DNA of 51,689 bases, from NCBI RefSeq assembly GCF_004010195.1, contig NC_057718.1, forward strand, positions 4,907,291 to 4,958,979, written 5' to 3'. The stretch comes from Chiloscyllium plagiosum. Taxonomy: Eukaryota. Positions 13 through 47,653 of the stretch are shown piece after piece (positions within the stretch are counted from its first letter, which is position 1; each line of letters opens with the position of its first letter). A program made the position numbers and the translations under genes. The notes beneath the pieces are model-generated. The model was not told the origin of the DNA and did no database searches. It saw only the letters and a program-made list of their open reading frames with translations.

Positions 13-40
13 CTGATGAAGGGCTTTTGCCCGAAACGTC
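13..40 (+). ncRNA. Minimal type I hammerhead ribozyme core (PLE family 1), intact
   Basis: CTGATGA-A-GGGC-tttt-GCCC-GAAACGTC: conserved boxes, 4-bp helix II, palindromic ACGT, GUC triplet. Confidence 0.75.
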
Positions 41-459
41 GATTTTGCCTGTCCTCGGATGCTGCCTGAATTGCTGTGCTCTTCCAGCACCACTAATCCA
101 GAATCTGGTTTCCAGCATCTGCAGTCATTGTTTTTACCTCTGAGAAACCCAGCAGGTCTGACAACATCTGTGGAGGGGAACACTCTGCTTTCTCTCTAGA
201 GATACTGCCAGACAAGCTGAGTTTCTCCAGCAATTTTTGTGTTTGTTTCAGATTTCCAGCATCTTTTGTTTTATTTTAGTGCTCTGAAGATCAATGTTTG
301 GAAAAAATATTGTAGATTTTTAAGACTTTAAAGATCTGAAACGTTTTTGAAGAAATATCATTGTTGAGTATGTGGCAGGTCTCAATATTGTGAAAAGTGA
401 ATGGAATATTCATACATGGGATGTAGCAGTCACGAGCTGGGCCCAGCATTTATTGCCGG

Positions 460-810
460 TTGCTATGGTTGTGGGTATGTTCGCTGAGCTGGGAAGTTGA
501 TTTGCAGATGTTTTGTCCCCTGTCTCGGTGACACTTTCAGGGCTTTGGAGTCTCCTGTATTGTGCTGAACGGTGTCTTCTGGAATTTATTTGGTTCCATT
601 CCTGCTGTTTCCAGGGTTTGCTGGCTCTTGGTGTTCATTGTAGTGAGTGATATATTGGGTCTAGGTCAATGCTGTTGACAGAGTCTGTGGATGAGTGCCA
701 TGCGTCTAGAAATTCTCTGGCTGTCCTCTGTTTGGCTTGTCCTATTATCGTTGTGCTGTCCCAGTCAAATTTGTGATCCTTGTCATCGGTGTGTATGGCA
801 ACTAGAAACA
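460..810 (-). mobile_element. Penelope-like (Poseidon-type) 3' fragment with decayed hammerhead (507-540)
   Basis: Minus frame reads HKFDWDSTTIIGQAKQRTAREFLDAWHS...IDLDPIY, typical of a PLE GIY-YIG C-terminus. Confidence 0.7.
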
Positions 811-814
811 GGTT

Positions 815-1860
815 CTTGCCTGTCCCAGTTGCCCCTTGAGAAGGAGGGGGTGAGCTGCCTTCTTGAACTGCTGCAGTCCACCTGCTGTGGATTCATCCAC
901 AATGCCCTTCGGGAGAGAATTCCAGGATTTTGACCCAATAACACTGAAGGAATGGTGAGTGACTTGGAGGGGGACTTGTTCCCATGTGTCTGCTGCCCTT
1001 GTCCTTCTCGATGGTAATGATGATGGAGTTGCTGTCCAAGGTACTGGTGGATTGATACAGTGCAATGTAGATGTTGTACACAGCTGCTACAGTGTGTCGG
1101 TGTTGGAGGGAGTGAAGGTGGTGGATTTAGTGTCAATCAAGTGAGTTGCTTTGTCCTTAATAGTTTGTAGCTTCTTGCTGGAAGTATACTCACCCAGGCA
1201 AGTGGGAATAATCCATCACACTTCTGAGGTATTCTATTTAGATGACAGACAGGCTTTGGGGAGTCAGGAGGTGGGTTATTTACAGTAAGATCACTAGCCT
1301 CTGACCTGCTCTGTAGCCACTGCATGTATGGTGAGACCAGTTCAGTTTCTGGTAAATAGTAAACCCAAGGATGTTGATAAGTGAGGGATTCAATGATGGC
1401 AATGCCACTAAATATCAAGGATATATTGTGACATTCGCTTTTGGTATGAGATGGTCATTGCCTGGCATTTGTGTGGCATGAATATTATTGGCCACCTCTT
1501 GGCCCAAGCCTGGGTATTGTCCAGACCTTGTTGCATTTGAACATGGACTGCTTCAGTATCTGAGGAGTTGCGAATGGTGCTGAACATTGTGCAATCATCA
1601 GAGAACATCCCCACTTCTGACCTTATGATGGACAGAATGTCATTGATGAAGCAGCTGAAGATGGTTGGGCCTTGGACACTACCCTGAGGAACTCCTGCAG
1701 AGATGTCCTGGAGCAGTGATGACTGACCTCCAACAACCATGACCATTTTCTGTTGTGCCACAAATGACTCTAACCAGTGGAGAGTTTACCCCCCTGATAC
1801 TCATTGGTTCCAGTTTTGCTAGGGCTCTTTGAGATTCAGTTAAATTCTATCTTGATGTGA
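815..1860 (-). mobile_element. CR1-type LINE RT/3' remnant
   Basis: AGVPQGSVQGPTIFSCFINDI...MFSDDCT. Confidence 0.8.
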
Positions 1861-2815
1861 AATCCTTCACTGAGATCGCAGAGTGGAAACCTAGCCTGCT
1901 ATTCCTGGATTCAATTTGAAAGTTAAAAGTGGTATTTAAAGTACACAAGACCTCTAATTACCTGTCCTTCACTTCTTTACAGGATGGGAAGAGATTGTAT
2001 TACCAATTGCAAAGTCTCTGAATTAAAGGCCGCAGCTTCTAGCAACTAGTGAGAGAAATGCGCAGGTTTAGTTCAGACATTGGGTATTAATTGGATAGAA
2101 AGACACACGCTTTGCCCTTTAAGCAGTCCCTTGGCTTCTGTTCAAGCCATTCACACCCACAAGCTATTCAGCTACCCAGAAGCCAATCAGATAATTGTTG
2201 TCTGGCTGATAACAATGCCACGAACCAATCAGCCACCTGTTACCAGCCAGGTCTCACAGGTGGGGCCCAAACTCCACTCCTTATGGTGCCCTATGAGTCA
2301 CAGCCTGTCAACACCAGAGTGTCCCATTCACTCCGACTGTCTTTTTTATTATTTATTGACCAATTCGCAATCCATTTCAGTTGCTCCTCCAATCCCACCC
2401 TGCTCCAACCTTCTGTATGGAACCTTATCAAATGGCTTCTCAAAATTAAAATGAATGACATCCACTAATGACCACAGTAGATGCTTGTCACATGAGATGG
2501 TGTTTCACTAAGTCCCTGCTGATTCTGCCCAATCAGATCAGGAAGAAAGCAATTATCACATTCGAAATGACAGATTCCAGTTATTTCTCTGCGATGGACA
2601 TCAGGTTAACCCCTGTTCTTTCCTCATTCTCTCTCTCCCTCCTTTCTAAAATGCAGGTGTTACATTTGTAAGCCCCCAATCTACAAGACCCATTCCAGAA
2701 TCCATGGAATTTTACAAAACAATTACCAATGTATCCACAATCTCACCAAGACAAACATTAATTTCCCTCAATGCCCCCATTCTGCCTAACGTTTGTTTTT
2801 CTGCTATTTTATAGA

Positions 2816-4179: not shown

Positions 4180-4510
4180 AGGCAGCACGACGGCTCGGTG
4201 GTTAGCACTGGTGCCTCACAGCACCAGGGACCCGGGTTCGATACCAGCCTCAGGCAACTGTCTGTGTGGAGTTTGCACATCCTCCCCATGTGTGCTCAGG
4301 TTTTCTCCAGGTGCTCTGGTTTCCTCCCACAGTCCAAAGGTGTGCATGTTAGGGTGGGTTTCCAATGGGAAATTATCCCGTATTGTCCAGGGATGTGCAG
4401 GCTAGGTATCTGCAAATGGGGAATTGTGGGGTTACAGGGATGGGGTGGGATGCTCTTCAGAGGGTCAGTGTGGACTTGATGGGCCAAATGGTCTGCTTCC
4501 ATACTGTAGA
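4180..4510 (+). mobile_element. HE1-type V-SINE (tRNA head, V core, HER1 tail). Other copies ~9790-10040+, 12663-12965+, 14085-14385+, 19330-19640-, 23805-24125-, 33382-33720-, 35322-35545+, 51467-51689+
   Basis: A/B boxes (tggttagcactg...gggttcgat) and core tgtgtggagtttgcacattctccc...ggtttcctcccacagtccaaag. Confidence 0.85.
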
Positions 4511-5779
4511 GATTATAATACAACAAAGTCATAAGGTCATGGACACATTTCCAGCTTTGTAAACCTCTAATTCCCAATCTGCCAGAGTGGATCAAAAACC
4601 TGAAATATAGACCCAGCCACAGAATGGCTGCCAGACTGGAACTTGGTCAGAATAACAGGGACAAACACAAAGGTCAAAATGACCCTGAAGCAATCTCCAT
4701 GAAGATTGGCTGAGTCAATACTCACCACTCACTCGAATTGGAAGTCAATATATTGCTTTCAGAATATGTCGGGATCACATCATCATCCGTGGTCAGGCAG
4801 GACTGAGCTGACAGGATCTTTAATGTGAAGGGGATAAGGATGAGGATACAGAAGCTCAGAGGGCGAAAGTGAGGACTGCAGATGCTAGAGATCAGACCCA
4901 AGACGAAGGGCTTATGCCTGAAATCTGCTCCTCAGATGCTGCCTGACCTGCTGTGCTTTCCCAGCCCCACTCTCCTGGCTAGAGGAGTTCAGAGCCTGCT
5001 CCATTATTCAAAGATGTACAGCTTAGGTGGATTGGCCATGGGTTACAGAGATAGGGTGGGGGGCTGGGGCTGGTGGGATGCTCTTCGGAAGGTTGGTGTG
5101 GATTCGATGCGCCGAATGGCCTCTTTAGGCATGGTGGGGCATCTATAATTCAATATGATCACACTTGATCTCATCTTGGTCCCAACCCCTTTCCTGCTCA
5201 CTCTCCATAACTCTTCAACCTATTACTAATTAAAAATCTAGGTCTCCTTTTTAAATTTACTCAACGTCCCCACACCCACCTCACTCTGAGGTAGTGAATT
5301 CCACAGATACACAGTGCTTTGGGAAAAGGACATTTTTCCTCATCTCTGTTTTTAATCTGCTCCACCGTTTCCTAAAACTCCGCTGGATAGCCCCACAAGG
5401 AGAAACATCCTCTCCATGTCCATTTTGTCAATCCCCTTTAGCATTTTCTATTCCTCAATTAGATCTCCTCTCATTCTGCTCATCTTTAGCGAGTATTACA
5501 GCGGGTACAGGCCTAAACTGCTCACACTCTCCTCAAAAGACAAGCCTTTCATCTCTGGAACCAATCTAGTGAACCTCGAAAGGGGCTGGTGCTCCACAAA
5601 TGATTGATTGGAGGATCCTGTGTGGCAGACTCTAATAGGAAGAGCAGATGCTCCTCCAGCTGCTCATTAACAATACATTAGCTTTTCTTAAACATTCAGA
5701 CTTGGACTGGGAAAGCACCTTCGACAGCCTGAGGGCGACAAATGTCGGGGGTGAAGTGTAGGCTATTGTTGTGACTTTG

Positions 5780-7280: not shown

Positions 7281-10200
7281 TAAGTACAATTTGCTGAAGT
7301 GAATTGTGATTGAATTGCTGGAGAAAATGGGGCCAATCATATCTCCAGAAAGTGCTGGTCTAGTTGGCAATGATCTTGGTGGCAGCAGCCTCCACCAATG
7401 CTCCCAAGTGACCATTTTCACGTGTGGGTCGAGACAGTGGGCTATTCAACACCAGGAGCTATCATAGCTGAAGCAGATTCTGTCCTTGGCTTTCAGCTTA
7501 ACTGATAGGGGTCATTCGGTCCTGAGCTGGATTCTACCCTGTCCTGGCCGTATCCCAAACTAGACACCCCTAACATGCTAGACTCTGGCACTCAGGCCTG
7601 CGTCTCTCAGTTCAACAATAGGACAGGTTGGGGTGGGGGTTGGGGTACATAACCTGCCTTTCAAAAGTGTTCTTCTACCGATTTGTAGAGTTTAGTCCAT
7701 ACACAACTGAAACCCTGACCTTGTTACCTCTCGACAGTCCCACCTCTTGGCTGATAATTCACTCTCTGAAAGTTTGGATTATCTCAAACCCAGCTGCCTG
7801 TGCCTTCACTCTCGCCAAGTCAAGTGGATTGATCTACACAAGCAACACATCTGTTTTCAAAGTGCTCAAATCCCTCCACAGCTTCCCCACTACCTCCATA
7901 ACCTCCTTCAGATGCACAACCACCAAAAATAACTAAACTCCTCCAATTCTAAAATAAAACAAAGATCTGTGAATGTTGGAAATCTGATCCAAAAACAGCA
8001 ATTACTGGAGGATCTCACCAGGTCTGACAGCATCTGTGGGAAGGAAGCAGAGTTCAGTGACCCTTCTTCAGATCTGGTTTCAAAACATTAATTCTGTTTT
8101 CTCTCCACAAATACTGCCAGACCATAGGGACCATAGAGCTGTATAACAAAGAATCAGACCCTTCAGTCCAACTCGTCCATACTGGCCAGATATCCTAAAT
8201 TAATCTAGTCCCATTTGCCAGCATTTGGCCCACATCCCTCTAATTCCTTCCCATTCATCCACCCATCCAGATGCCTTTTAAATGTTGTAATTGTACCAGT
8301 CTCTACCACTTCCTCTGGCAGCTCATTCCACACATGTACCACCCTCTGTGTGAAAATGTTGCCCTTTAGGCCCCTGTTAAAGCTTTCCCCTCTCCCCTTA
8401 AACCTATGCCCTCTAATTCACCTTCCTACCCTGGGATAAAGACTTTGGCTATTCATCCTATCCATACCCCTTATGATTTTATAAACCTTGAATATGTCTG
8501 CTCTCACAACAGTTCCGCTCAGAGCCAAGAACAGAATCTGTTTCAACTACGATGGCTCCTGGAGTGGAATAGTCCATTGTCCCCCCCTCAGCCTCGTCCA
8601 ATTGCAGCCTCCTTCGTTGTCTGATTTTAATTCCTCAACCATTGGTGACCACGCCTTCTTCACTAGTCCTGACCCCAAACCTTGGAATTCCTTCCCTGTC
8701 ACTCTCCCCGCCCCCTACCTCCCTCCTTTAAAACCATCCTTAATCCTCATTTGTTCATCTGGGTTAATATTCCCTCACACATTTTATAATTCTCTGGTGA
8801 AGCACTTTTTCTATTGTGTTAAAAGGAGCTATATAAATACGAATTGTTGTTGAGAACAGTAATTAAAGGGCAAACACTGACCATTATCAGAACAAGGATA
8901 TACCCAGATTGCAGTTGTGAAGATCAGCCAGGACTATAAATTGGGAGATTACTGTGCAATGTAGTATCTCATATTTGCAACCTTCTAGAATAATGCCAAT
9001 CTCAATCACTTCTAACCAAACCATTAAACATCCAAGAAAGCTACCAAATAACTACACCAAAATAATAAAATATTTGTATTTACCTGTTTAAATATGTTAA
9101 TTTAATTTGACCCAAGCCAAATCTCCATGAGTATTTGTATAACTTACAACACCCAACTCCTCCCTGCCTCATCACATCTCCTGCTGAAACCTACATTTAA
9201 TCTTTTCCAGTGATTATTATTCCAATGTTCACCTGGATGGATGCCCATCTTTCATCTGGAACACCACTAACAGTAACAAAATCAGAAATTGCAGGAAAAG
9301 CTCACCAGGTCTGGCAGTGTCTGTGGAGAGAAATCAGAGTTAACGTTTTGGGTCCGGTGACCCTTCCTCAGAACTGCAGAGCTTTCAGTTTTTTATTCAC
9401 TGCTGTCGGTATCCGAACCTGCTCCAAGTCCCATTCACCATCGCCTCCAGTCACTCCCCAGTCTGGCTCAGCTCACTGTTAGATCCCTATCCTTGTTAGA
9501 TCCCTATCCTTGGTTCCAAATTCCTTCATGACCTTTTCCTGCCCGATCTCCGTAATCCCCTTCAGTCCACGACCCCCTGAGATCTCTGCACCCCTCTTTA
9601 CGCTGGCTTCCTGTGTAGATCTGACTTCCATCACTCCTGCCTGAGCAAGAGATGTCGGAAAACCCCCCTCTCCCAACTCTTCACTTCACCTTTTGGTCGA
9701 TGATGCTCATATCTCATTTTATAACTCAGTGTCAACCCTTGACTGATTGTGCTTGGGACATTGGGACATTGACTACAAGTGCTATATGAGGGGCTCAGTG
9801 ATTAGCACTGCTGCCTCATGGCGCCAGGGACTGGCCTTGGGTGACTGTGGGGAGTTTGCAGATTCTCCCCGTGTCTGCGTGGGTTTCCTCCAGTTACTCC
9901 CACAGTCCAGGGATGTGCAGGCTACATGGGTTAGCCAGGGAAAATGTAGGGATTGGATGGACAGTGTGATGCTCTTCAGAAGGTTGGTGCACACTTGATG
10001 GGCTGAATGGCCTCCTCCTGCATTGTAATGATTCTATGATATTTATGTAAACAGTTGTTGAAACAGCAAATATTGGGGTGAAAATTAAACTTGGATGCTT
10101 TAGCATAAAACAATCTGACATATATCAAACTGGGAATGGGATTGGACATTGCAATAGGCCTATCATAGCCTGCCAATGTACTCCCACGCATCTCAAACCA

Positions 10201-11183
10201 CTGCCCAAGATGAAATCCCACTCTCTCTTACCTCTGAACTCACCCATGGTTAAGCACACCGGCAATCCAATGAGTCTTTCACTAGCTTGTATCAGACCCA
10301 GGTTGACTGTCTATGATCTAAGGCAGGAGACCTCCCATCAAGCTAAACAGCAATGTGACCACCAGGCAGATGGCTTTCAGCATCTTCAATGTGGGGTGGC
10401 AATGGCCGAGTGGAAATGATGCTGGACTATTAATCCAAAAGCTCAGGCAATGTTCTGGGAACCTGGGTTCAAATCCCACCATGGTAGATGTTAGAATTTG
10501 AATTCAATAAAGAATCTGGAATTAAGGGTCGAAAGTTGACCATGAGACCATTTCTGATTGTTGGTAAAACCCATCTGGTTCACTAATGTCCTTTAGGGAA
10601 GGAAACTGATACCCTTACCTGGTCGAGAAGAGAGTGGGGACTGGAGATCAGAGTCAAGAAGGTGGTGCTGGAAAAGCACAGCAAGTCAGGCAGCATCCGA
10701 GGAGCAGGAGAATTGATGTTTCGGGTATAAGCCCTTCATCAGACTCTTCCTGGTCTGGTCTACATGTGACTCCACACCTATAGTAATGGAGTTGACTCTT
10801 AACTGCCCTGTGGACCATTAGGGATGGGGCAATAAGTTGCTGACCTGGAGAGTGACAACCGTATCCATGAATGAAAAGGAAACTGGCACCAAGTACAAAC
10901 CGCATCCACAGTTCCTGAGAGAAGTGTTGTCTTTCACAGACTCCCAAATAAGTACAAGGACAGAGAGATAAAAAAAATTAACTGGACATCAGTCCTGACA
11001 ACACACCAACAAAATCACTTGCCGCATCAGCTGAATCCGAAACATTTCTCAGGAACTGAAATTTCTCATTTCCAAAGTACAAAGTTAAACAAACAAGTGA
11101 GAAAGTGCTGTGTGCCGCTTGCTGAGACACAGCCTGACAGTTCAGAAACTCTTGAATACTGTCACCCAGCACTGCTCAGCTCA

Positions 11184-11324
11184 TCAGGCGGCCTCACTGA
11201 GTTTCAGACTCCAGGCCCATTGACACGGCAGTTGGTTGATGTTGACTCTGGGTAGTAGCACCAGCAGACCCTGCTCTCCAAACTTCTCCCACTGCAGACG
11301 CTCGGGGTATCCAATGAGGGTTAC
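11184..11324 (-). CDS. FUCA2: FUCA2 exon 7 coding part ([46 protein letters not shown])
   Basis: Read by hand. Acceptor ataag|, 141 nt, ends in TGA followed by a second TGA; PCQWAW matches the PCxWxW C-terminal motif. Confidence 0.93.
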   Translation of the reverse strand, partial: VTLIGYPERLQWEKFGEQGLLVLLPRVNINQLPCQWAWSLKLSEAA

Positions 11325-14300
11325 CTTATTCATAAAATAAATTCAATATTAAACAACAATTTAAAATAATGCACATGTATAAACCATCTCGACGGTAAGG
11401 ACAGTTGGATTGAGCTTTTGTCAGTTATCACTTGACCTTTCTTCTGCTCTCTCTCCGTAGCCAGAACTAACCCACAGTACAGCAAACCTTTTATTAACCG
11501 GCACATTTTTACGGATGCACCACAGAAAGCATTCTCTCTGAATATAACACTGTGGGCTCATAGAGTCATACAGCCCTTCAGTCCAACCAGTCCATGCCGA
11601 CCCATAATCCCAAATTAAACTCGCCCCACCTGCCTGCTCCTGGCCCATATCCCTCCAAACCTTTCCTATTCATGTACTTATCCAAATGTCTTTAAAACAG
11701 TCTAATTGTACCCACATCCACCACTTCCACTGGAAGTTCATTCCAAACGCAAACCACCCGCTGTATAAAAAAAATTACCCCTCATGTCGTTTGTAAATCT
11801 TTCTCCTCTCACTTTAAAAGTCTGCCCCCAAGATTTGAAAGTCCCCCAGCCTGGGGAAAAGATACCAATAATTAAATCTATACCCATGGTAACTGCTCAT
11901 GCCAAGAAACTGCAGAGAGTTGTGAACACAGCCCAGTCCATCACACAAACCAGCCGTCCATCCATTGACTCCATCTATACTTCCCACTGCCTCGGGAAAG
12001 CAGCCAACATTATAAAGACCCCTCCCATCCCAGTCATAATCTCTTCCACCCTCTTCCATCGGGCAGAGATACAAAAGCTTAAACACACATAAGAACAGAT
12101 TCAAGAACAGCTTCTTCCCCACTGTTATTAGACTTCTGAATGAACCTCTCAAATTAAATTTTATGCTGCTCTCGTTTTCTGTGCACCTTCTCTGCAGCCG
12201 TTACATTGTATTTCTCGTTCTGTTCTATTATCCTAATGCACTTTGTATGGTATGATCTACCTGTACTGCATGCAATACAAAACTTTTCACTGTATTTAGG
12301 TACACGTGACAATAATAAATCAAAGCAAATTAAATCGAGGGGACCAGGAATGTGCCGGATGATCGAATATTCTGGGTAATCAAGAGGTGCACATTACCTT
12401 TGTAAGCACACTCACTGAATAATAGAAATGTAATGCAGGGGCAATACACATCACAGGTAAACTTAATTTACAGCATAAATCACTTAAATAATAATGAAAC
12501 TTTGTCTTAAATAAAACTTACCAGCAGAGAGCCGTTTCACTCCTACCCTCAACTGACCATTCAGGCATTACTGCAGATTGCGGTATTTGAAGAGATATTG
12601 ACGCAAAATTAAACCAACTCTTGATATTTCATGAGGCCATTTAATTGAACAACAAGTATATTTGGGCAGCACAGTGGCTCAGTGGTTAGCGCTGCTGCCT
12701 CACAGCGCCAGGGACCCAGGTTCGGTTCCAGCCTCGGGAGACTGTCTGTGTGGAGTTTGCACATTCTCCCCGTGTCTGCATGGGTTTCCTCCCATGGTCC
12801 AAAGTTGTGCAGGTCAGATGAATTGGCCATGCTAAATTGCCCCAGAGTGTTAGGTGCATTAGTCAGAGGGAAATGGGTCTGGGTGGGTTACTCTTCAGAG
12901 GGTCGGTGTGGACTGGTTGTGCCAAAGGGCCTGTTTCCACACTGTAGGGAATCTAATCTAATCTTACACTGAGGTGAATAAACTTTGATCAGCATGGGTC
13001 ATAGGGCCTGTCTCCGTGTTGTAGGACTCTATGACTCTAAAAGCTATACTAATTGGATGGTATATTCAAGGCTGAGGTAGATTTTTAACTAGTTGAAGGA
13101 ACCAAGATGAATGGTGACAAAGCAGGAAAGTGGAGCTGAGGGTTATCAGGTCTCACTGAATGGATGAGCAGACTCAATGGGCTGAATGGCCTGCTTCTGT
13201 GCCTATGTAATATGGTCAGAATAATGCCGTAAACCTTGTGGTATTTGAGGTACATAATTTTGCCGGTTTATGGAAGGTGCAGAAGGCTCTTGTTAAAACA
13301 ATGTTTGCTGTACCATGACCATCAGCAGGGGGCGAGGCAAGAACAGGGTCCTGCATTCACTCAGACCAGAAAGGTGACCAAGACCCACTCTGCTCACTCT
13401 AACCTGACCCACACTGATCCTCCGGCCAGGTGAACCAACTAAACCGCCAAGGAATATGAACTGCAGTAGAAACACACATTGTGCATGTGTATTACAGCCT
13501 GTAGCAGCTGTCACTTATTCCCATCACATGGCCACGCATGAATTCCCACCCCTCACTGCCTGCCAATGGGGGGAGGATTGACCAGTTGACAGTGCACTTG
13601 TGTGACCACGTTATGGACGTACCGACCTGGACTGAGGCTCGAACCCGCATCCTCTGGCTCAGAGGCAGGGACACTACCCACTGTACCACAAAGGCTTCTA
13701 ACACACCCTTGTCTGTTATTCAATGATTCAAACCTTTGTTTCTCCTGCTGTAACACGAGGAGCTCCAAGGACCAGCATTCCTAGTTTTGGCCAGGTGAGG
13801 AATATTGCATAAACCACCCCTTTCTCCACTCCAGCTGTGTACCTGGAAAAACATAATAAATTCTCAGAAGATAAAATGTCTTCAATAATTGACAAACAGC
13901 ATTGGCACCATCACACTTTCAGAATGGAAATGAGGGCCTGGTCAGTGAGTGAATGAGGCGGCCAAAGGCATTAGTGTAAATGGGATTGGGGAGCTGTGTA
14001 GAGTGAGATAATGTATGAGGTATGGTCTCAATGAACGGTGGAACAGGTTTGTGTGGCTAAGCTCTCTTCTCCTGTTCCAATGGGGTGGTAGTGGCTCAGT
14101 GGGGTTCGATTCCAGCCTCAGGCGACTGTCTGTGTGGAGTTTGCACATTCTCCCTGTGTCTGCGTGGGTTTCCTCTGGGTGCTCCAGTTTCCTCCCACAA
14201 TCCAAAGATGTGCAGGCTCGGTGGAAATTGCCTACAGTGTACAGGAACGCATAGGCTAGGTGCATTAGTCAGGGGAAATGTAGAGTAATATGATAGGGGA

Positions 14301-17300
14301 ATGGGTCAGGGTGGGATACTCTTTCAGAGGGTTGATGTAGACATGTTGGGCCAAATGGCCTGTTTCCACACCGTGGGGATTCTGCAATGAGAAATGAGCA
14401 GATCAAAATGCTGGCAAAGAGGAATATTTGAAAGGAATGTTTGACATTCAAGGGGTCAGAATGGGGCCCCTGGTTTAACAACTCTGTGAGAAGACAGCAG
14501 TTCCAATAGCGCAGCACTCCCTCAGGACTGCACTGGAGAGTCACTGTGCTCCAGTCTCCGGAGGGAAACTTGATAAAGAGACCTTGTGACAGCGGAGGGG
14601 TGGACTGTTACCTATTGAGGAATAGAGGCAGGGTGCCTGCAGAGTGGAGAGATAAATTTATCTTCATTTACCTCTCCACTCTGCAGGCACCCTGCCTCTA
14701 TTCCTGATGAAGGGCTTTTGCCCGAAACATCAATTTTCTTGCTCCTCGGATGCTGCCTGACCTGCTGTGCTTTTCCAGCACACTCTGATCTAGACTCTGG
14801 TTTCCAGCATCTGCAGTCATTGTTTTTACCTGTTACCTATTGAGCCATGGCTGATAGCAATGTGCTAACATCAGAACAGAGGAACCAGGAGCAGGAGTAG
14901 GCCATCTTGCTCCTCGAGCCTGCTCAGCCATTCAATAAGATCATGGTTGACCTCTGATACACTCCTGTCTATCACATTTGGTCTCAAATTTCAGAATAAT
15001 GGAGAGCTTCTCGAATACAAGATAAAGGGCACGTATTGCTGAGGCTGTACAAGGCTCTGTTCACAGCCCTTCTGGAATATTGTGAGCAGCTTTGGGCCCC
15101 ATATCTAAGGAAGGATGTGTTGGCATTGGAGACAGTCCAGAGGTGGTTTACAAGAATAATTTCAGGGACGATGTGCTTGTCATATGAGGAACGGTTGACG
15201 ACTCTGCGTCTGTTCTCGATGGAGTTTAGAAAGATGAAGGACGGAATCTGATTGAGTACTGAGGCACCTAGATAGAGTGGACTGTGGAGAAGATGATTCC
15301 CTCGTAGGAGAGGCTAGGACACAAGGAGAAGAGCCTCAGGTGAAGAGACGAACTGAAATGAAGAGGGTGGTAACTCTGTGGAACTCGTTGCTGCAGAGGG
15401 CTGTGGAGGCCAGGTTATTGAGTGTATTTAAGAGAGAGATAGATAGGTTCTTGATTTGTAAGGGGATCAAGGGTTACAGGGAGAAGGAAGGAGAATAGGG
15501 TTGAGAAATACATTAGGGGCCATGATTGAATGGTGGAGCAGATTTGATGAGCTGAGTGGCCTAATTTCTGCTTCTATATTTTATGGTTTTACAGTCTCTC
15601 CATCATTAGCAAAACGTCAACAGAGGGAAAATCTGACGGTCTCTCGCATAAACATAACAGCTACATTTCTTGTGGGAACTAGGGTTGGGGTGTGGGGGGC
15701 TAAATTTTACACCTGTGTGTCACAGACAGTCTGTCTAATACAGAAACTGCCTCCACTCATCTCCAATTCTTCTTAGCCAGCAGTGGGAAACAGAGCATGT
15801 GCATGTTACACCTGACGGAGCAGGTTTAACCTTTTCAGAGAGTCTCAGACAGTTAGGAAGCCCTTTTTTGCAGAGGTGCCCTGCATCCTCTTGGATATGG
15901 TCCTGGAATACCTTTAGCGGGGCTCCAGTACCCTTTGGGAAGGGTAAGGTGTACCTTGAGATTGTCACAAGTGGAGTAGACACGCAAGTACATAAACTCA
16001 ATTAAAACTGTCAATCACATTATCACTGTCAAAAGCAACTGAGAAGCTGCTACAAATTCAAAAAATGTTGGAAATCACAGCAGGTCAGGGAGCATCCATG
16101 GACAGGATATGGAACAAGCTAACGTTTCAAGTCTCAAAGATTCTTCGTCAGAGTTGGTAGGCATTAGAAGCTCCCACCCTTTAAATATTGAAAAATAAAC
16201 TCTCTGGAACGTTAAAAGCAAAAGCTGCTATTTCTCTCTGTCTGTTCACAGAAGCACAGGGATTACCATCATAAGATTCATATTGTAGGTCTGATTTCAC
16301 AACCTTGCATTATCACAGTTGGCTGCCCGTAACTCACAGTTTGCTCCAAGTTGTGATTAATGCTTTGAAGTGGAACTATAAATTCCAATGTGTGTGTTTT
16401 TACGAGATTAGCAAAAAGTAACTGCATGAATTGATTTTGTTCAATCAATTGGAAATTTTAAAAAATAATAAATTCTTCAATGGACAATTAGAACTTTACT
16501 TCATCTTATTTCAGCATGAACCCCGAGGCCTAGTCATGATGTGGAGGTGCCGGTGTTGGCCTGGGGTATACAAGGTCAGAAGTCACATGACACCAAGTTA
16601 TAGTCCAACAGGTTTATTTGAAATCACAAGCTTTCAGAGCGCTGCCCCTTCATCAGGTGAAGTTCATCTGACCTGCTGAAGGAGTAGCGCTCCAAAAGCT
16701 TGCCTGACAGTCGCCTGAGGCTGGAATCGAACCCGGGTCCCTGGTGCTGTGAGGCAGCAGTGCTAACCACTGAGCCACTACCACCCCCATTGGAACAGGA
16801 GGAGAGAGCTTAGCCACACAAACCTGTTCCACCGTTCATTGAGACCATACCTCATACATTATTTCAGTCTACATAGCTCCCCAATCCCATTTACACCCTG
16901 GAAAAGCACAGTAGGTCAAGCAGCTTCCAAGGAGCAGGAGCAGCAGGGGTGGCACGGTGGCTCAGTGGTTAGCACTGCAGCCTCATGTGACTTCTATGAC
17001 ATGGTGTCATGTGACTTCTGACCTAATCATGATGGATATTGGCCACCCCAAGAATAAAACTTCCCAAAAATTACTTTGTATAGTTTTGAGTGCTTTTATC
17101 TAAAGGTTTTATTTGTTATGATTTGATTACAGTATGTAAGGACATGATGGTGCTATTATTTTCTAATCAGCATCCATGACTTGTTTTTTATCATCAAGTG
17201 AGTATTTTTTTGTATCTTCTTGGTATTTCCATGGATGCATTCTTGTGCCACCATTATGTACACTATGTATTGACTAATCCCCATCTCCATGCATGTAGTT

Positions 17301-34100: not shown

Positions 34101-36640
34101 CAACCTTTGGAATATTGTGAGCAGTTTTGGGATCTGTATCTAAGGAAGGATATGCGCATTGGAAGGGGTCCAGACAAGGTTTACAAGAATGATCCTGGGA
34201 ATGAAGGGCTAGTCATATGAGGCATGGGTGAGGACTCTGGGTCTGTACTTGATGGAGTTGACAAGGATGTGGGGGGATCTGACTAAAACTTACAGGATAC
34301 CGAGAGGCCTGGATAGAGTGGATGTAGAGAAGGTATTTCCATTATTAGGAGAAACTAGGACCCAAGGGCACAGTGTCTGAGTGAAGGGACCACCATTTTG
34401 ATCGAAGATGAGGAGGAATTTTTCAGCCATTGGGTGGTGAATCAATGGAACACATTGCCACAGAAGTCTCTGAAGGCCAAGTAATTCAGTGTATCTGAGA
34501 CAGAGATAGATAGGTTCTTGTTTCGTAAGGGGATCAGTGAGAAGGCAGGAGAATGGGGTTGAGAGATATATCAGCCATGGTCAAATGGTGGAGCAGCCTC
34601 AATGGGCTGAATGGCCTAATGTTGCTCTTGGTATCTTATGGTCTTATTATCATATGATCAGTACCAGAAGGAAATAAGAGGGATTATTGTGTTTATTTCT
34701 GTGTATGACTGTTGTTTAGAGACATTGAGCATGTAATTGGTCAAATATAAAACTTCATATCATAACTAAAATTTACTTTGCAAGTAGTTTTGGTGCTAAA
34801 TTCAAAATTTCCTCCAGCTTGCCTTGAATCTTGGGGTCTGTGTGGATTTTAGAAATACTTAATATAATCAAACAGGCAGCATGACTTCATAACGGGGCAA
34901 TCAGATCTGGCAAAATTACTGGAATTCTTTTAAGGAAGTAACAAGTAGGATCAATAAAGGGGGACCAGTAGATGTTATATATTTGGTTTTCCAACAGGCA
35001 TTTGGCAAGGTACCACCGTTAGGCGTCTTAATAAGATAAGAAATAATGTTGTTGAGGGCTGTTTATTAGCATGCTTACTAGTAGATTACAAAGAGTTGGG
35101 GATTAAAAATAAGGCATTTTCAGGATGGCAACCTGTAATTCGTAGATTGCTATTGGGATCAATGCTGGGGCTACAATTATTTATAATCTGTGTTAATGAC
35201 TTGGAAGATGGAAGTGAATGTACAACCATCAAATTTGTGGATGGTGCAAAAATAGGTGGGAAGTCACAGGAATATAGACAAGTGTGTGGGAAAACAAAAC
35301 TTGACAGATGTAACATAATGCATCTGTGTGGAGTTTGCACATTCTCCCTGTGTCTGCGTGGGTTTCCTCTGGATGCTCCAGTTTCTTCCCACAATCCAAA
35401 GAGGTGCAGGTTAGGTGAATTTGCCATGCTAAGTTGCCCATAGTGTCTGGGGATGTGTAGGTTAGATGCATTAGTCAGGGGAAATGTAGAGTAATAGGGC
35501 AGGAAAATGTAATTTGGGTGGGATACTCTTCGGAGGGGAATTCTATGATGAATGCGGGATATGTGACTTATATACTTTGTGATATGAAAAATAGAGGAAC
35601 TGTATCTTATTCAAAAGGAGAAAGTCTTCGGAAAGCGTGATAGCCCCTACAAGGCCCATGAGGAATCATTGATTAGTCCCCCATCGATCTATGTTGCTGG
35701 AAAAGCGCAGCAGGTCAGGCAGCATCAAAGGAGAAGGAGAATCGACATTTCGGGCATAAGCCTTTCTTTAGGAATCCCTCCTGCACTTTTCCAGCAACAC
35801 ATTTTTAAGCTCTGATCCCCAGCATCTGCGGTCCTCACTTTCTCCCCTCTCGATCTGGTTGAGTATGAGTTCCCAACCTCTATTTTGGTGTTCAACAATA
35901 AATGGTGTCCCTTTTCCAGCTGGGTTTCCTGAGTTATTACAGAAAGTTAAAGCGCAGAGGGACTTTGTAGTTCTTGTGTGCAGATCACAAAAGCTGGCAC
36001 TCAAGTTCAGCGGATAACAGGGTAGGCTCATGGTCACATAACCTTTAGTTCAAAGATACGAAGTCTTGCTAAACATATGAAAAGCACAAAAGGCACCCAG
36101 AACCTTGCAAGCAGTTTATGATCTTTACCTATCAAAAGTGGTAGTGGTTTTGGAAACAGTTGGGAGAGGGTGCAGTCGGTATGGAGGGATCTTCTTATGA
36201 GGGAGGTTGAGCAGGTTGGGCCTGTACTCATTGGAATTTTGAAGAATGAGAGATAACCTTATTGAAACATATAAAATTCTTAGAAGGACTTGAGAGGGTG
36301 GATACGGAGATATTATTTCCTTTGGTAAGTGTGTCTCAGATCAAAGGGCATAATCTCAGAATTAGAGGTTGCCCATTTAAGACAGAGACGAGGAGGAATT
36401 TCTTCTCTCTGTTTGCAATTGTGCATAATTCTTTAGCACTGAGCAGATGGGTCATCAGGTATATTCAAGGCTGAAATGGATTTTTAATCAGGAAGAGAAC
36501 CACAGATTATGGGGAAAATGCAAAAAAAAAGTGGAGTTGAGGATTATCAGCTGAGCCATGTTTCCATTGAATGGTGGAGCAGACTTAAGGGGCTGATTGG
36601 CCCCAATTCCATTCCTATTGGCTTAGCGGTTTTATGGGAG
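31200..36640. mobile_element. Cluster of nested CR1 fragments on both strands, including an APE endonuclease remnant (32280-33380, -), plus V-SINEs
   Basis: GGGVALLIRDSI...ESVWVEVRNRKG...HRPP...MGEFNFPNIDW; VTSGVPQGS; KFADNKK. Confidence 0.85.
35691..35845. mobile_element. Fold-back PLE family 1 fragment
   Basis: Inverted gctggaaaag / cttttccagc arms; tcgatct repeated at both flanks. Confidence 0.65.
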
Positions 36641-37179: not shown

Positions 37180-38394
37180 GTAAATGGCTTTGAGAGAGAA
37201 GCAATGCAATAACAACAATGGCCTGATTTTAACTGTGTGTAAGTACGTGGAGTTGGATTTAAATGTTTTAATAAATGTACAACATATTTGTAATTATTCG
37301 ATTGAGGCAAAGAATAGAATGAAAATGATTTCATCTCATGTCCAGTTATTATCACAGCAATGTTATATATTTGAGTATTCTCCCTAGACTTTCCTGATGC
37401 ATTTATACATTCACAGAGATTAACATTTTTAAAGACTACATTGTCAATTGATACTGCAAAGCTCATTCGAAATATGCACTAAAACCTGTTCTAATTATTT
37501 TTAACCAACCGCAGCAAGGTGGTTTTGCAGAACTTGCTGTATATAGTCAAAAAAACCTGGGCTCTGGTTTCCTGTCTCTCTCCTTCTGTAATGTGTTTTT
37601 TGAATCGATTTGTTTTTTTGTGAAGCTAATAGTCTCTGTTCTTTGTCAGTTCCAGGGAGTTTGTTTTTAAACTGTGAGCACTTGCTGCTACCTTGCAGTT
37701 CCATTCCCTCAGTGAGGGAGTTTGGAGCCGGTTTGTGAGATCTGAGAAAGACAGAGGAAACATGAATCTTAAGATAAGGAGACTTACTTTTTTAAACAAG
37801 TCTTTCAGTTGGTTCAGTTTCTTCTCACTTCTGTTTAAACTATTGATCTAAAAGATGCTGCCCAGACTAGATTTTGCAATCAGTAATGACTTGAAAGTGC
37901 ACATGACATTTTTAAAACAATTTTCTTAAGAAGCAAACAAAGTGCTTGAGAAACACAGCATGTCTGACAGCATCTGCGGTGAGAGAAAGGCAGAGTTAAT
38001 ATTTTGAGTCCAATTACCCTTCTTCAGACCATCTGCAATTTCTGCTTTTTGTTTGTTTCAGATCCCCACCAGCTATAGTTCTTTGTTTTATTTAAGGATT
38101 TTCCAAAGCTCTGCAAGAGGTTTAATTCGGTAATAGTGGACAAAGAGTCCAAGGAGATATAAGGAAGAGATGATTAAGAGCTTGCTCAAAGAGCAGGCCT
38201 TGAATTTGAGTATTGAAGGAAGAATGGGGGAATTTTGGGAGAGATTTCTGGATCTTAAGGACTTGGCTGCTGAAGGCTCAATCATCAGAAGGGGAGTGTT
38301 AAAATTGGGGGTGTGCATGTGTCTGGTGTGGATGAACATACTGACCTGGAATGTTTCAGGCTGACAGGAGGTGAATAGATAGAGAGAGCAAAGA

Positions 38395-38878: not shown

Positions 38879-38879
38879 C

Positions 38880-40065: not shown

Positions 40066-40077
40066 GAATGGATGTAC

Positions 40078-42125: not shown

Positions 42126-44281
42126 AGTTAGTGTGTGGAATAATAGGATTGGCCACGATCTTATTGAGTGGGACAGCAGATTTAAGGGGATGAGTGGCCC
42201 TTCCTGCTAAAGCTATGGGTTAGTATGTGTCGATCTGCTTCAGTGTCACACTTAGGTATCCCTTTGACTTTTGCAATTGTGACACAAAATGGTCAAAGAT
42301 AGTTTAATCTTCCCTGCAAAAGATCACCGGGTCAGAGGGGTGAGCATGAGGCCTAGGGAACAATACCCTGATATTTGTTCAGCCAATCTTCACTGAGTAT
42401 CTTTGCAGTTGCCACAGTGTGAGCATGTGCCTCTTTATTGTCTAACATCACCTCATGATGTTGGTTTTGTTTCTGTATGAATATCAAAGAAGGAAATAAC
42501 CCACACAGATAATGGGGAGGCAGTGTCCTAGTGGTATCAGTGCTAGACTATTAAACCAGAGGCCCTGATAACGATCCGGGGACCCGGGTTTGAATCACAC
42601 CTTGGCAGAGGGTGGAATTTGGATTCATTGAGGAAAATAATTAATGAGGACCACTGAATCAATTGTCGGAGAAACCCATCCTTATCTGGTCTGACTGACA
42701 TGTGAATCCAGACCCACAACAATGTGGGTTGACTCTTAGCTGCCCTCTGGGCAATTAGGGAGGGGCAATAAATGCTGACCCAGCCAGCGACGCCTACATC
42801 ATGTGAACAAATAAATACACACACAACTGACACCTCTGTCAGAGACAGAGACATCTTAGTACACCTGTCTGGGTGTGTTTCCAGGATGAGATGCCCTTTA
42901 GCATGTCACGTTTGGAAGTTTCTGTGTATCTCAGTGCCACCACAGTATGCTGTGGTTACACTGAAATGAGTGTGACAGGACCAGTATAAAACCATTTCAT
43001 TTAGGAACTGGGTAATGGGAGATATGACGGCACCCAGAGCAAGAATTCAGAATTATAGACAATTGGATGCACAGAAAGTGGCCACTTGGATCAAGTGTGT
43101 GCCAGCCAACAAATGTCCCTCCTCAGCTACATCTCACCTCCTACCTTGTGTCCTGCAAGTTACAGAACTTACAGAATTCAAAAGGAAAGAAAGTGACATT
43201 TAAATTATAATGCAATCTATCTGAACACAAGAGGTGGGTTAGGTACCTGACACTGTTGTTGCTGGGAATAATTTGGTAATAAAGGCCGTTGTGCCCACAC
43301 ACAGTGAGAGACATGAACCTTAGTTCCTAGTGAGTCACAACAACAGATAGCATTGACACAGTGCGTTTAACTTTGTAAAACATTCTTTTTGGAATCATAG
43401 AAGTTTACAATGCAGGAGGAGGCCATTTGACCCATTGTGTCTGTACCAGCTCCCAAAAGAGCTACCCAACCAGTCTCACTCTCCAGCCCTATATCCACAG
43501 TCCTCAAAATTTATCCCTTTCAAATATATATATCCATCTCTCTTTTGAAACATCCTATGGAATCCACCTCCCCCACTCTCCCAGGCAGCACATTCAAGAT
43601 CCTAACAACTGAGTAAAGGAATTTCTTTTCTTCTCACTCCTAGCCCTGTTGCTGTCAATCTTGAAATTGTGACCCCTAGTTACTGACATACCTATTCATG
43701 GAAACAGAATATCCTTCTTTACCCTTGTTCATCCTTGTTTATAATTTTGGACACCTCAATAATGTTCTCTGCTCCAATGAGAATAAACCTTAATCTTTCC
43801 TTGTATCGAAATTCCTTCATTCTTGGTATCCTGGAGAAGGAAGGAGAGGTGGAAACATTTAGTGACTGAATTCCAGAGTTAGGTGTAGAACCAGTCTGGC
43901 CAACAGTAATTTGAGGAGCAGGAATTCAGGAGGAACAGGAATCCAGAGTGAAAGGAAAGCAGATCTCAAAGAGTTGTGGGAACAAAGCTGGAGAGACAGA
44001 AAGAGTTGAAGACTTTGAAGGATTTAAGCTCAGAGGTGAGAATTTTAAACTGAGCTACAGCAATTCCATTTGATGAGTGTGCAGAGAAACAGTGGGTTCA
44101 ACATTATCAATACTGGTAATAACATTTCTGCTGCTTATAAATAACTTGTAAACTATATTTGAAGATCACTTCCTGAGTTGGCCAATTCAGAAACTGGTGA
44201 CTTAAGCTGAATATCTTGTTGCAAATTGAAATTTCAGTTTCATTTTATGAACAGTTGGAATTTCTGCTGATATCGGTACAA

Positions 44282-44460
44282 AGTCAGAAGTTACGTGACG
44301 GCTGGTTATAGTGCAACAGGTTTATTTGAAATTACAAGCTTTCGATGAAGGGGCAGGACTCCGAAAGCTTGCAATTTCAAATAGACCTGTTAGACGATAA
44401 CCTGACGTCATGTGACTTCTGCCTTTGTCCACCCCAGTCCAACACCAGCAACTCCACATC
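44282..44460. mobile_element. Fold-back PLE family 2 insertion
   Basis: Inverted arms ggttatagtgcaacaggtttatttgaaat / atttcaaatagacctgttagacgataacc. Confidence 0.7.
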
Positions 44461-44789
44461 CTGATATTGGTACATGTATAGCATTGGACCTGTTGATATG
44501 CATATATCATTGGAATTTCTGTGATTATTTGTGTATATAATGGAACCACACAAATATATCACTGGAGTCACGATTTCAAACAGCTGGAGTCTCCCCTCAT
44601 ATGTGTTTCTGTTTGTTGTCTTTCACAATCACTGCATCGCTTTAATCTTGATTGTTGCTCCAATTTCTGAGCAATGTGTTCTCTGGGTCAAAATCTGCTT
44701 CAGAATCAGCTGATGGATCCCTTCGCCGCGTCTCTGGATTTGTAAAATTTGTTTGCGATATGAGTGTCAGATTATGCCTTTTTGGAATT

Positions 44790-45430
44790 TCTATGCCATT
44801 CATGCCTTTGCTATCTCTCGAACACGCTCCAGACCAGTCTCCCACATTCCATTCTGGAGGAACCTTCAGATCATCCCAAAACCTGGCTTCCCATGTCCTC
44901 ACTCATGCCAGGATCTGTTCACCAATCACCTGCAGGCTCACTCGCCCACAATGGCTGCTGGAATAAGCAATGCTGCAGTTTGCCAATTTTTAACCCCTGC
45001 ATGACCTCGTCCCTCTCTCTCATCCTACTTTCCCTCCTGCTCCTTAGCCTTCTGAGATCTTTACACTTTTTATTCCTGATGAAGGGCTTTTGCCCGAAAC
45101 GTCGATTTTGCCTGTCCTCGGATGCTGCCTGAATTGCTGTGCTCTTCCAGCACCACTAATCCAGACTCCCGTAATTCTGTCAGCTTGAGCTTTCCTGATT
45201 GTACCCACTCCACCGCTGGTGGCCATGCCTTCAGCTGCCTCAGCACTAAGCTGAGGAAATCCATCCCCATTTATTTTCAGCTCCCTCTTCTCCTTAAAAC
45301 ACTGAAGCCCTTTGGACAGGTATTGGGTCCTATCCAGGGATTGCTGTTTGGTATAATTATTTATTTCACAACGCCCTGAAGGACTTTGACACATTTCAGT
45401 TTGTTAAAGGCTCTCTGTAAATACATGTTG
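44790..45430 (+). mobile_element. L2 LINE 3' remnant, interrupted by a PLE end at 45070-45165
   Basis: cattcatgcctttgctatctctcga...ccatgtcctcactcatgcc...tcaccaatcacc L2-like pattern; similar pieces at ~7690-7950 and 9160-9790. Confidence 0.55.
45076..45103 (+). ncRNA. Minimal hammerhead ribozyme core (PLE family 1), intact
   Basis: CTGATGAAGGGCTTTTGCCCGAAACGTC. Confidence 0.75.
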
Positions 45431-46210
45431 TTGTTCTAATCATTGCAGCTGATCAGTATTAAATGTTATGCTGGGGCAGAATGCAAGCAATAGTTTACAT
45501 TATGAGCAACAAAACTACGAGGGGCCTGTCTTTTAACAAGGTGCAGTGACGTTGTAGTTACGTTATTGGATATAAGAAATAGGAGCAGGAGTAGGCCATC
45601 TGGTCCCTCGAGCCTGATCCACCATTCAATGATCTTTTCATGGACTCAGCTCCACTTACCCGGGCTCTCACCATAACCCTTGATTCCTTTACTGGTCAAA
45701 AATCTGTCTATCTTTGCTTTAAAAATATTCAATGAGGTAGCCTCAACCGCTTCACTGGGCGGGGAATTCCTCGCCCTCTGGGTGAAGTAATTCCTCCTCA
45801 ACTCTGTCCTAAATCTGCTGCCCCTTGAGGTTATGCCTCCTAGTTCTAGTTTCACCCAGAAACAACCTCCCTGCTTCTATCTTATGTATTCCCTTCATAA
45901 CATTTTTTATGTTTCTATAAAATCCTGCCTCATTCTTCTAGATTCCAATGAATACGATTCTGTGACTTGAGCAAATGATCCAGAGATGTGGGTTCAAATC
46001 CCAGCAGGGTTAACTGGGCGACTTTATTTATTAATTGAATTCAAAGCTGGCATTGAAAGCTAATATCAACAATGATGGCAATGAAACAATCATTGATAGA
46101 CATCAAAACCCATCCTTATTTGTTAATGTCCTATAAATAATAAAATCTACCATCACACCATGTACAAAACAACAACCATGTGCTTGACTCTTACCTTCTG
46201 TAATGATGTA

Positions 46211-46416
46211 AAAACAATGACTGCAGATGCTGGAAACCAGATTCTGGATTAGTGGTGCTCTTCCAGCACCACTAATCCAGAAACTGCTGTGCTCTTCCAG
46301 CACCACTAATCTAGAAAACTTCTGTGCTCTTCCAGCACCACTAATCCAGAAACTGCTGTGCTCTTCCAGCACCACTAATCCAGAAAACTGCTGTGCTCTT
46401 CCAGCACCACTAATCT
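46211..46416. mobile_element. PLE end with inversion and ~5 tandem 34-35-nt copies; 16-bp TSD
   Basis: TSD cttctgtaatgatgta at 46195-46210 and 46417-46432. Confidence 0.85.
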
Positions 46417-46757
46417 CTTCTGTAATGATGTAGCAAGTAACTCAATTGCAAAGAAGCCAACTCCCTTTCTCCAGAGTATTTAAGAACAGGCCAGCCAGCA
46501 GCACCGAGATCATGTCAATAATTTCAGAAAAAACTTTTCTCTGGTGTCATCAACAGGAAGCCAACTCTCCAGATATCCTTTTCTAAAATTAAAGGGGAAA
46601 CTCTGACTCAGAAATAATTCACATTGCATATTCAAGAAAAGAAATCTGACAAACTAAATTGACAAACTATTCCAGATATCTGCAGATCTTTCCATCACTA
46701 CTGCGGTTGCTGGTCACAGCAAGTCCTCTAATATCAGAAGGCAATAAGACACAGGAG

Positions 46758-46967
46758 AGAAAGTGAGGGTTGCAGATGCTGGAGAGCCAGAGTTGGAAGT
46801 GTGGCGCTGGAAAAGCACAGCAGCATCCGAAGAGCAGAAGAGTCGACGTTTCGGACTGAAACCCTTCATCAGGAATGGGATGAAGGGCTTGTGCCCGAAA
46901 TATCGATTCTCGTGCTCCTTGGATGCTGCCAGACCTGCTGTGCTCTTCCAGCGCCATACTTTTCGAC
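46758..46967. mobile_element. Fold-back PLE family 1 insertion with 14-bp TSD
   Basis: TSD ataagacacaggag at 46744-46757 and 46968-46981; hammerhead core at 46845-46872 (-). Confidence 0.85.
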
Positions 46968-47219
46968 ATAAGACACAGGAGCAGAAGTAGCCTATTCGGC
47001 CCGTTGAGTTTGTTCTGCCATGCAGTCATGGTCAATCTGATAATCCTCAACTTCAGTTTCCTGCTTTTTCTTGATACCATTACTGATTAAAATCTGTGTG
47101 TCACAGGTTTCAACAACCCAGCCTCAACAACCCTCTGTGATAAAGAATTGCACAGACCTACTACACTCTTAGTGAAGAAATTCCTCCTCATCTCGGTGTT
47201 AAATGGATGACCCCTTACT

Positions 47220-47653
47220 TTGTTTTTACCAAGGTACAATGACTGCAGATGTTGGAAACCAGAGCCTAGATTAGAGAGGTGCTGGAAAAGCACAGCAGTT
47301 CAGGCAGCATCTGAGGAGCAGGAAAATCGACGTTTCGGGCAAAAGCCCTTCATCAGGAATACAGGCAGAGAGCCTGAAGGGCGGAGAGATAAATGAGAGG
47401 AGGGTGGGGGTGGGCAGAAAGTAGCAGAGAGTAAAGAGCTTCAGGGCAGAGGAAATGACCTGGGAGTTGCAGTGGGAGAGGGACTCCCGGAGATTCTTGT
47501 AGAGAGAGGAGGAAAACTTCAAGGAATCCTTGCCAGAGGATTCGCAGTATGGTTAAAATCAACTTGGTAAAAACAATGACTGCAGATGCTGGAAACCAGA
47601 GTCTAGATTAGAGTGGTGCTGGAAAAGCACAGCAGGTCAGGCAGCACCTGAGG
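47220..47653 (-). mobile_element. Non-coding PLE derivative with partial tandem (pseudo-LTR) structure, ~335-nt unit
   Basis: Terminal ~85 nt occurs at 47233 and again at 47566; one intact hammerhead; inserted in a CR1. Confidence 0.75.
47329..47356 (-). ncRNA. Minimal hammerhead ribozyme core (PLE family 1), intact
   Basis: Reverse complement reads CTGATGAAGGGCTTTTGCCCGAAACGTC. Confidence 0.75.

Follow-up and report, generated by a model that had tools for sequence, protein, structure and literature searches.

The 51,689-nucleotide stretch analysed here (the window) comes from the shark Chiloscyllium plagiosum (NCBI RefSeq assembly GCF_004010195.1, contig NC_057718.1, positions 4,907,291 to 4,958,979 of the forward strand). 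It holds the host gene FUCA2 and many copies of a short motif with the core letters of the hammerhead ribozyme (HHR). We consider it highly probable that these motifs are minimal type I hammerheads (min-HHRs) in the pseudo-long terminal repeats (pLTRs) of several families of Penelope-like elements (PLEs), mostly decayed, and that the dispersed copies are most likely inert.

Census of the motif and its families

A strict descriptor (CUGANGA, an optional A, helix II of at least 3 pairs, GAAA, a palindrome and H) gave nine parses at seven loci, 13(+), 25400(+), 45076(+), 47356(-), 46872(-), 26507(-) and 16656(-), against a mean of 0.045 (maximum 2) in 200 dinucleotide shuffles. A looser pattern gave 15 matches, compared with 3.9 ± 2.0 (maximum 9) in dinucleotide shuffles; those at 284(+), 33921(-), 38288(-), 41202(+), 47863(-), 50294(+) and 18679(-) do not pass the helix tests and were set aside as chance matches. 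Profile searches that started from three families led to 25 copies that could be scored by hand over the whole motif, with five partial copies lacking half of it excluded (4900(+), 8071(-), 8083(+), 44344(-) and 29967(-)). The 25 copies were grouped into family 1 (five in subfamily 1a, five in 1b, two in 1c), family 2 (eight), family 3 (three), family 4 (one) and family 5 (one). The host gene and the insertions are as follows.

8..134 (+): family 1a PLE 3′ end, core-intact min-HHR at 13-40 (H17 at 40), then downstream pLTR and tail; 99% identical to the 45076 copy over 100 nt
507..838 (-): PLE remnant, presumably Poseidon-type, in which the C-terminus of the endonuclease (838-527) continues into a decayed family 4 HHR (540-507) with four core defects (G8A, A9G, G12A, palindrome ACAT)
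4862..4980: family 1b inverted pair, 5′-truncated and internally deleted HHR (+) with a tail-only partner (-)
7975..8123: family 3 inverted pair of partial HHRs, 8071(-) without the 3′ core and a (+) copy beginning near G12
9280..9376 (-): family 3 copy (HHR 9371-9342) with a 4-bp helix I, a 5-bp helix II and G12A
10645..10747 (-): family 1b copy, broken palindrome ACAT
11190..29375 (-): FUCA2 (plasma alpha-L-fucosidase) host gene, seven coding exons running from 29375 to 11190
14605..14844 (+): family 1a insertion flanked by a 15-bp target-site duplication; its inverted 5′ piece makes a long hairpin (14614-14708), the HHR, with its palindrome broken, lies at 14704, and a tail follows
16116..16156 (-): family 5 min-HHR, unmutated core, weakened helix II; sense in FUCA2 intron 5
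16529..17034: family 2 insertion with a 13-bp duplication, core-intact HHR 16656-16628(-), sense in FUCA2 intron 5; decayed inverted copy 16673(+) broken up by pieces of a short interspersed nuclear element (SINE)
17927..18690: putative Neptune-type PLE remnant, GIY-YIG at about 18130-18480 (+), pLTR with decayed HHR 18563(+), tail; also an inverted family 1c copy at 17992(-)
19951..20183: family 2 inverted pair, 20078(-) with and 20083(+) without a tail, both cores broken; target-site duplication matching at 13/15 positions
20283..21147 (-): putative Neptune-type endonuclease remnant and decayed family 1c HHR 20360(-), with a family 3 copy, 20721(+), inserted into it
25247..25484: family 2 inverted pair made of the broken, tailed 25366(-) and of 25400(+), which is tailless and has an unmutated core but has lost helix I
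26410..26512 (-): family 2 min-HHR with an intact core (26507-26479) and AGCU-A, 3 bp in helix I and 5 bp in helix II; lies in FUCA2 intron 2 in sense orientation
28421..28860 (+): putative Neptune-type endonuclease C-terminal remnant, pLTR and decayed family 1a HHR 28760, inside a 31-bp satellite
29899..29967 (-): family 1 3′ end starting within the palindrome, without the HHR 5′ half
35677..35856: family 1b inverted pair, decayed HHR 35771(-) (tailless) and a tail-bearing fragment (+)
37942..38032 (-): family 3 copy, G12A
44267..44474: family 2 inverted pair, 44342(+) without C3/U4 and tailed, 44344(-) beginning at C11.1; target-site duplication matching at 13/14 positions
45069..45170 (+): family 1a core-intact min-HHR (45076-45103), tailless
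46744..46981: family 1b inverted pair, core-intact 46872-46845(-) (core unmutated, two G-U pairs in helix II) with tail and 5′-truncated 46877(+); exact 14-bp duplication, one long hairpin when folded
47226..47660 (-): family 1a partial tandem, HHR-less pLTR end and tail (47655-47567), element sequence, then a second pLTR with core-intact HHR 47356-47329

It is evident that most copies are broken. No core substitution is found in 8 of the 25 hand-scored copies, namely the seven strict-descriptor loci and 16151(-), whereas the remaining 17 have broken cores. Intact members of the core (CUGANGA, GAA, A15.1-U16.1 and H17) occur in families 1, 2 and 5, and none was found in families 3 and 4 in this window. 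All 11 positions called by the first-pass annotation are real hammerhead-derived sequence, and the copies it regarded as intact, three of family 1 (13(+), 45076(+) and 47356-47329(-)) and one of family 2 (26507-26479(-)), are so. Its claim that the core recurs more than 15 times holds if decayed copies are counted, but not for intact cores. Among its five family 1 variants, 10742(-), 14704(+), 18563(+) and 28760(+) do have broken palindromes (ACAT or ATGT), 18563(+) with G12A in addition, whereas 46872-46845(-) proved to be unmutated. For the third family at 9371-9342(-), the 4-bp helix I and 5-bp helix II were correctly seen, but the core is broken; the Poseidon-linked variant at 540-507(-) derives from a hammerhead, but was presented without its core defects. 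Both of these copies should be dead, because G12, the general base of the hammerhead (PMC6155905), is substituted. The core-intact family 2 copies 16656(-) and 25400(+) and further decayed copies of families 1, 2 and 3 had been overlooked. The estimate of about four families was right in that covarying families exist, but it missed family 5 at 16151(-) and the family 1-related group of 20360(-) and 17992(-).

All 25 copies have an extra base after position 9 and before 10.1 (A in 23, G in one and U in one). G10.1-C11.1 is the commonest pair closing helix II (G-C in 8 of 12 distinct alignment rows, G-U in three, unpaired in one), and it is also the majority state in family 2. Helix III is a loopless palindrome, ACGU in families 1, 3 and 5 and AGCU in family 2, a two-sided change. 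Helix I ranges from 0 to 4 bp across copies; in family 1 it consists of 2 bp, a mismatch and 1 bp. The activity of monomers was earlier doubted for the shortness of helix I; the first obstacle is the loopless helix III rather than helix I alone.

We aligned 13 copies (12 distinct; families 2 and 4 absent) and found that 80.5% of the helix cells are paired, compared with 11-43% in controls with slid partners. Two-sided changes occur at 6 of 10 pairs (14 cells), a level reached by 1 of 500 shuffles, whereas two weaker measures on the same alignment, the paired fraction and the number of covarying pairs, were reached by 23 and 144 of 500 shuffles, respectively. With one hand-picked copy for each of six groups, 47 of 54 cells are paired against 36.6 after shuffling, and none of 20000 shuffles reached that level. 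As the copies are related, such counts should not be taken for probabilities. In helix I, pair 1 is C-G or U-A and pair 2 is U-A, A-U or C-G; in helix II, pair 4 is C-G, U-A or G-C; and the palindrome is ACGU or AGCU between families. Thus, covariation between families is seen in all three helices, and the earlier remark that pairing is kept while helix sequence differs is borne out. A covariance model built from the 13 copies outside family 2 picked up families 1, 3 and 5 again, and no new family appeared among its 37 matches at E ≤ 10.

Min-HHRs were defined in PLE repeats of fishes, coelacanth (~4,000), Xenopus (~9,000) and reptiles by Cervera & de la Pena (2014; PMC4209133), who found most motifs to stand singly on truncated elements, with no activity in the monomer and weak activity in the dimer; dimer cleavage is credited to Lunse et al. 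in a review (PMC6765202). The four signature traits given in that 2014 paper are all present in the window copies. The two sets share type I topology without loop 3, a palindromic 15.2-16.2 segment, the extra nucleotide between 9 and 10.1, G10.1-C11.1, and several covarying families per genome, for the most part as lone motifs on truncated PLEs, with some close pairs on opposite strands. They differ in host, since the accessible part of that paper names no shark, and helix II is 4-5 bp here compared with 7-8 bp in Schistosoma. The window copies have the same core letters as canonical Rfam type I hammerheads, including the conserved amniote intronic ones, but they lack a 6-bp helix I with loop-loop contact, and they occur in many decaying copies where the canonical ones are single and conserved. 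An Rfam search of the window returned 14 matches at E ≤ 5, none of them to a hammerhead. The miRNA-like matches at 14608-14713 in that search represent the inverted PLE duplication, and all lie under their gathering scores. The expectation that standard annotation would miss this layer therefore holds for Rfam, the one resource compared. PLE expansion in whale-shark introns has already been reported (10.1101/443036; PMC8455134). No paper devoted to shark min-HHRs was found in the literature searched, which covers few subscription journals.

Carrier elements and insertion anatomy

GIY-YIG endonuclease remnants lie upstream of four copies, 18563(+), 20360(-) and 28760(+) of family 1 and 540(-) of family 4. 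CKTC motifs survive in the 18563 and 20360 units, and their best long relatives carry a full Cys linker, with no reverse transcriptase (RT) present. A Cys-rich zinc-finger linker before GIY-YIG is a trait of the Neptune clade (Craig 2021). These features point to Neptune-type PLEs as the putative carriers of family 1. Upstream of the 540(-) copy lies the C-terminal end of a protein family that bears an RT and lacks the Cys linker; for this carrier we keep the presumptive label Poseidon-type of the first-pass annotation. Reading through the 540(-) motif gives GDETFA in one relative and GDKTSA in the window, in line with G12 in the family. For a Penelope-type endonuclease fragment of the window, the best named match is from Chiloscyllium punctatum (76% identity). 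The segment 47566-47436, read as the start of an open reading frame (ORF), had no significant protein match.

About 11 units are head-to-head inverted pairs, and where the tail is readable a tail of 30-40 nt is found on one member only. Inverted pairs with a one-sided tail are a hallmark of PLEs (Craig 2021). Target-site duplications of 13-16 bp scoring at least 10 were found in 6 of 20 hand-bounded units, compared with 0.7% of random pairs. The link of families 2, 3 and 5 to PLEs rests on this insertion anatomy (inverted pairs, tails and duplications) and is probable by that likeness. The remnants, pairs, tails and duplications together support the view that PLEs dispersed these min-HHRs, a class already published (PMC4209133) to which the window adds shark members.

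The inverted 5′ piece at 14605-14708 ends exactly at the first hammerhead core bases, and several inverted partners begin at G5 or C11.1, in cases too few for a test of preferred junctions. The copy 16673(+) stops one base past the cut site; we rejected any meaning in this, as the duplication shows that SINE pieces interrupt the copy.

In an Anolis Poseidon element (PAc), the hammerhead lies in the pLTR just upstream of two reverse-transcription starts, 111-118 nt into the ORF region, which set a tail of 30-40 nt (Frangieh et al. 2024; PMC11167929). The window copies resemble it in this arrangement and in tail length. Copies of families 1 and 2 end at about +80-95 or +120-130 from C3. The window copies differ from PAc in that no ORF is intact here and the ORF-linked copies are mostly of the putative Neptune type.

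These comparisons suggest how the motif could have spread. In an active parent, putatively Neptune-type for family 1 and Poseidon-type for family 4, with families 2, 3 and 5 unassigned, helix III may be formed when the palindrome (ACGU or AGCU) pairs with that of another copy on one tandem transcript, probably with help from the element's own protein, and the RNA would be cut after position 17, as in published relatives. RT would start at two sites, some 85-130 nt beyond the first base of the motif in the downstream direction. With starts downstream of the motif, insertions longer than ~130 nt would keep the hammerhead, working or not, and nearly every 5′-truncated insertion would carry one. 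The high motif density would thus be explained by truncated copies keeping a motif that sits just inside the retained end, near the RT start, and not by selection for cutting. After insertion, neutral decay would set in, quickest at the two core CpGs (11.1/12 and 15.2/16.2), and copies in inverted pairs would be held in long hairpins.

Decay, folding and alternative readings

Decay was counted in nine family 1 and six family 2 copies, scored against the family majority. CpG sites differ from the majority more often than other sites (23/94 vs 72/1002, P = 1×10−6), and core CpGs have changed as often as downstream CpGs (8/33 vs 12/46, P = 1.0). The CpG at 11.1/12 is lost in 12 of 25 copies and that at 15.2/16.2 in 9 of 17 non-family-2 copies. 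Long hairpins are predicted for five composite units. In four of them, all inverted pairs, the hairpin (-84 to -127 kcal/mol) buries the motif, and in the fifth, the 14704(+) unit, it ends at the hammerhead edge. For an isolated family 1a monomer, the predicted energy minimum is an inactive fold in which the CUGAU box pairs with the 3′ segment.

Several results weigh against our interpretation. Non-CpG core sites change less than downstream sites (4/160 vs 47/641, P = 0.028), a comparison confounded by subfamily differences and by core-based choice of copies; we read the deficit as constraint in the parent element plus that choice, and selection on inserted copies would look alike. In each of four cases, the cofold minimum is 11-15 kcal/mol lower than the designed double-hammerhead fold, so that an active dimer is unsupported by energy alone, although these energies ignore core contacts and protein help. 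Family 2 scored poorly (E 1.6 and 3.1) with the covariance model built without it, and the model therefore adds no independent cross-family support. The two reverse-transcription start sites are proposed from copy ends. RNA run X21 (2,715 reads over 46450-47720) lists no place where many molecules begin or end, the cut site included, but as a fragmented poly(A) single-cell library, judged by the minority of loose ends listed, it is a weak test of RNA ends. Run X22 gave no reads there. Finally, no ORF is attached to families 2, 3 and 5 within the window.

The last point raises the alternative that families 2, 3 and 5 did not arise as truncated ends of coding PLEs but as non-autonomous elements in their own right, similar to SINEs or retrozymes and dependent on PLE enzymes. 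Their copies are ~100-140 nt long, and animal retrozymes derive from pLTRs, with one chondrichthyan genome positive in a 2026 survey (10.64898/2026.07.22.740005). The type I hammerheads of animal non-LTR retrozymes (PMC7229834; 10.64898/2026.07.22.740005) are indeed related to those of PLE pLTRs. However, retrozymes form tandem arrays with a hammerhead in each unit, whereas the window copies are dispersed or in inverted pairs; none of the 12 tandem-repeat rows of the window contains a hammerhead, and the copies are thus not retrozyme arrays. The variable 5′ ends, inverted pairs and one-sided tails fit PLE truncation, family 3 shares a downstream box with the ORF-linked family 1, and the longest family 2 copy is cut off by an assembly gap ~420 nt upstream of its hammerhead. 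We therefore regard such independence as unlikely, and PLE families as the probable source of all five groups.

It is less likely still that some dispersed intact copies act in host transcripts, where two copies on the same strand and with the same palindrome would join into a double hammerhead that cuts the RNA, perhaps with PLE protein. Such pairs exist: 47356(-) and 46872(-) are 484 nt apart, and 26507(-) and 16656(-), both sense in FUCA2 introns, are 9.85 kb apart. In addition, three of the four core-intact copies inside FUCA2 are sense, the under-mutation of non-CpG core positions would be expected, and a Penelope protein activates a related hammerhead in vitro (PMC11167929). Against this, 46872(-) is predicted to be locked with its inverted neighbour in a hairpin of -109 kcal/mol, min-HHR dimers cut weakly even in vitro (PMC4209133), and core CpGs decay at the neutral rate. 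Sense copies are not depleted in FUCA2 introns, where 14 catalogued copies divide into seven sense and seven antisense. The X21 sense reads run across the cut site (666 at 47342 vs 746 at 47324) with no pile-up of ends, and no RNA ends at the cut site are seen in RNA-seq of Anolis PAc either, as described in PMC11167929. Reads of both strands are alike in number (718 and 574 in the bin of the 47356 motif). Inert dispersed copies thus remain the preferred reading. A loose-end pile-up at 47360 in reads and contigs, taken as a sharp 5′ boundary at the hammerhead edge, was rejected: the loose consensus starts with upstream letters of subfamily 1b, and a difference private to the copy in the window lies at 47362.

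That the motif is no ribozyme, but chance or a purely DNA-level feature of an amplified repeat counted repeatedly, is scarcely credible: all copies do come from ~6-7 parent sequences, so that the shuffle test overstates their independence, and Rfam matches none of them, but between parents the core is fixed while two-sided changes occur in pairs of all three helices, and the signature traits of Cervera & de la Pena (2014) occur together.

Abundance, host setting and minor observations

DNA run X1 over 46450-47720 (108,242 contigs) shows that the 47356 motif is a very abundant repeat, with a summed depth of 14.9 million at the motif against 7-25 in unique flank, although summed contig depth is not copy number. 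The broken palindrome of 46877(+) has intact letters in about half of the DNA depth and in most RNA reads. Scaling 8 intact cores per 51.3 kb to a genome that we take to be 3-4 Gb gives ~5 × 10^5, an extrapolation from one window chosen for this feature. On that density, several hundred thousand sequence-intact min-HHRs are likely in sharks. Long pre-mRNAs such as that of FUCA2 would then often contain two sense copies whose palindromes match. It would take a very improbable further step for some such pairs to cut host RNA when Penelope protein is expressed, in which case PLE debris would add a layer of dimer-gated RNA cleavage. Should the same density apply genome-wide, it would exceed the coelacanth and Xenopus counts given in PMC4209133, sharks would be among the genomes richest in hammerhead motifs, and these would offer a large natural library for the study of covariation and of PLE hammerhead function.

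We further noticed a family 1 insertion without a hammerhead at 46206-46417, in which an inverted tail precedes a 35-bp piece of the pLTR repeated 4.7 times in tandem; it is bounded by an exact 16-bp duplication and is a minisatellite born from a PLE end. The 31-bp satellite in FUCA2 intron 1 (~15 units; 27982-28455 and 28844-28922) is split by the family 1a element at 28421-28860. Assembly gaps lie at 25974-25984 and 26931-27292.

PLEs carry introns in their repeats. The family 1b tail has a pyrimidine run followed by AG, similar to a 3′ splice site, in two copies (18660-18690 and 19720-19750), which may be chance. Isoforms of MAP3K7 and NT5DC1 in C. punctatum (P0273 and P0275) are annotated with a PLE endonuclease C-terminus, which represents either exonisation or an annotation artefact. 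A junction between a tRNA-type SINE head and an inverted family 1 end occurs twice, at 16898-16984 and 19603-19695 (91% over 93 nt), and 16767-16896 matches 13974-14102 at 96%; these could be explained by local duplications within FUCA2 introns or by a composite repeat family.

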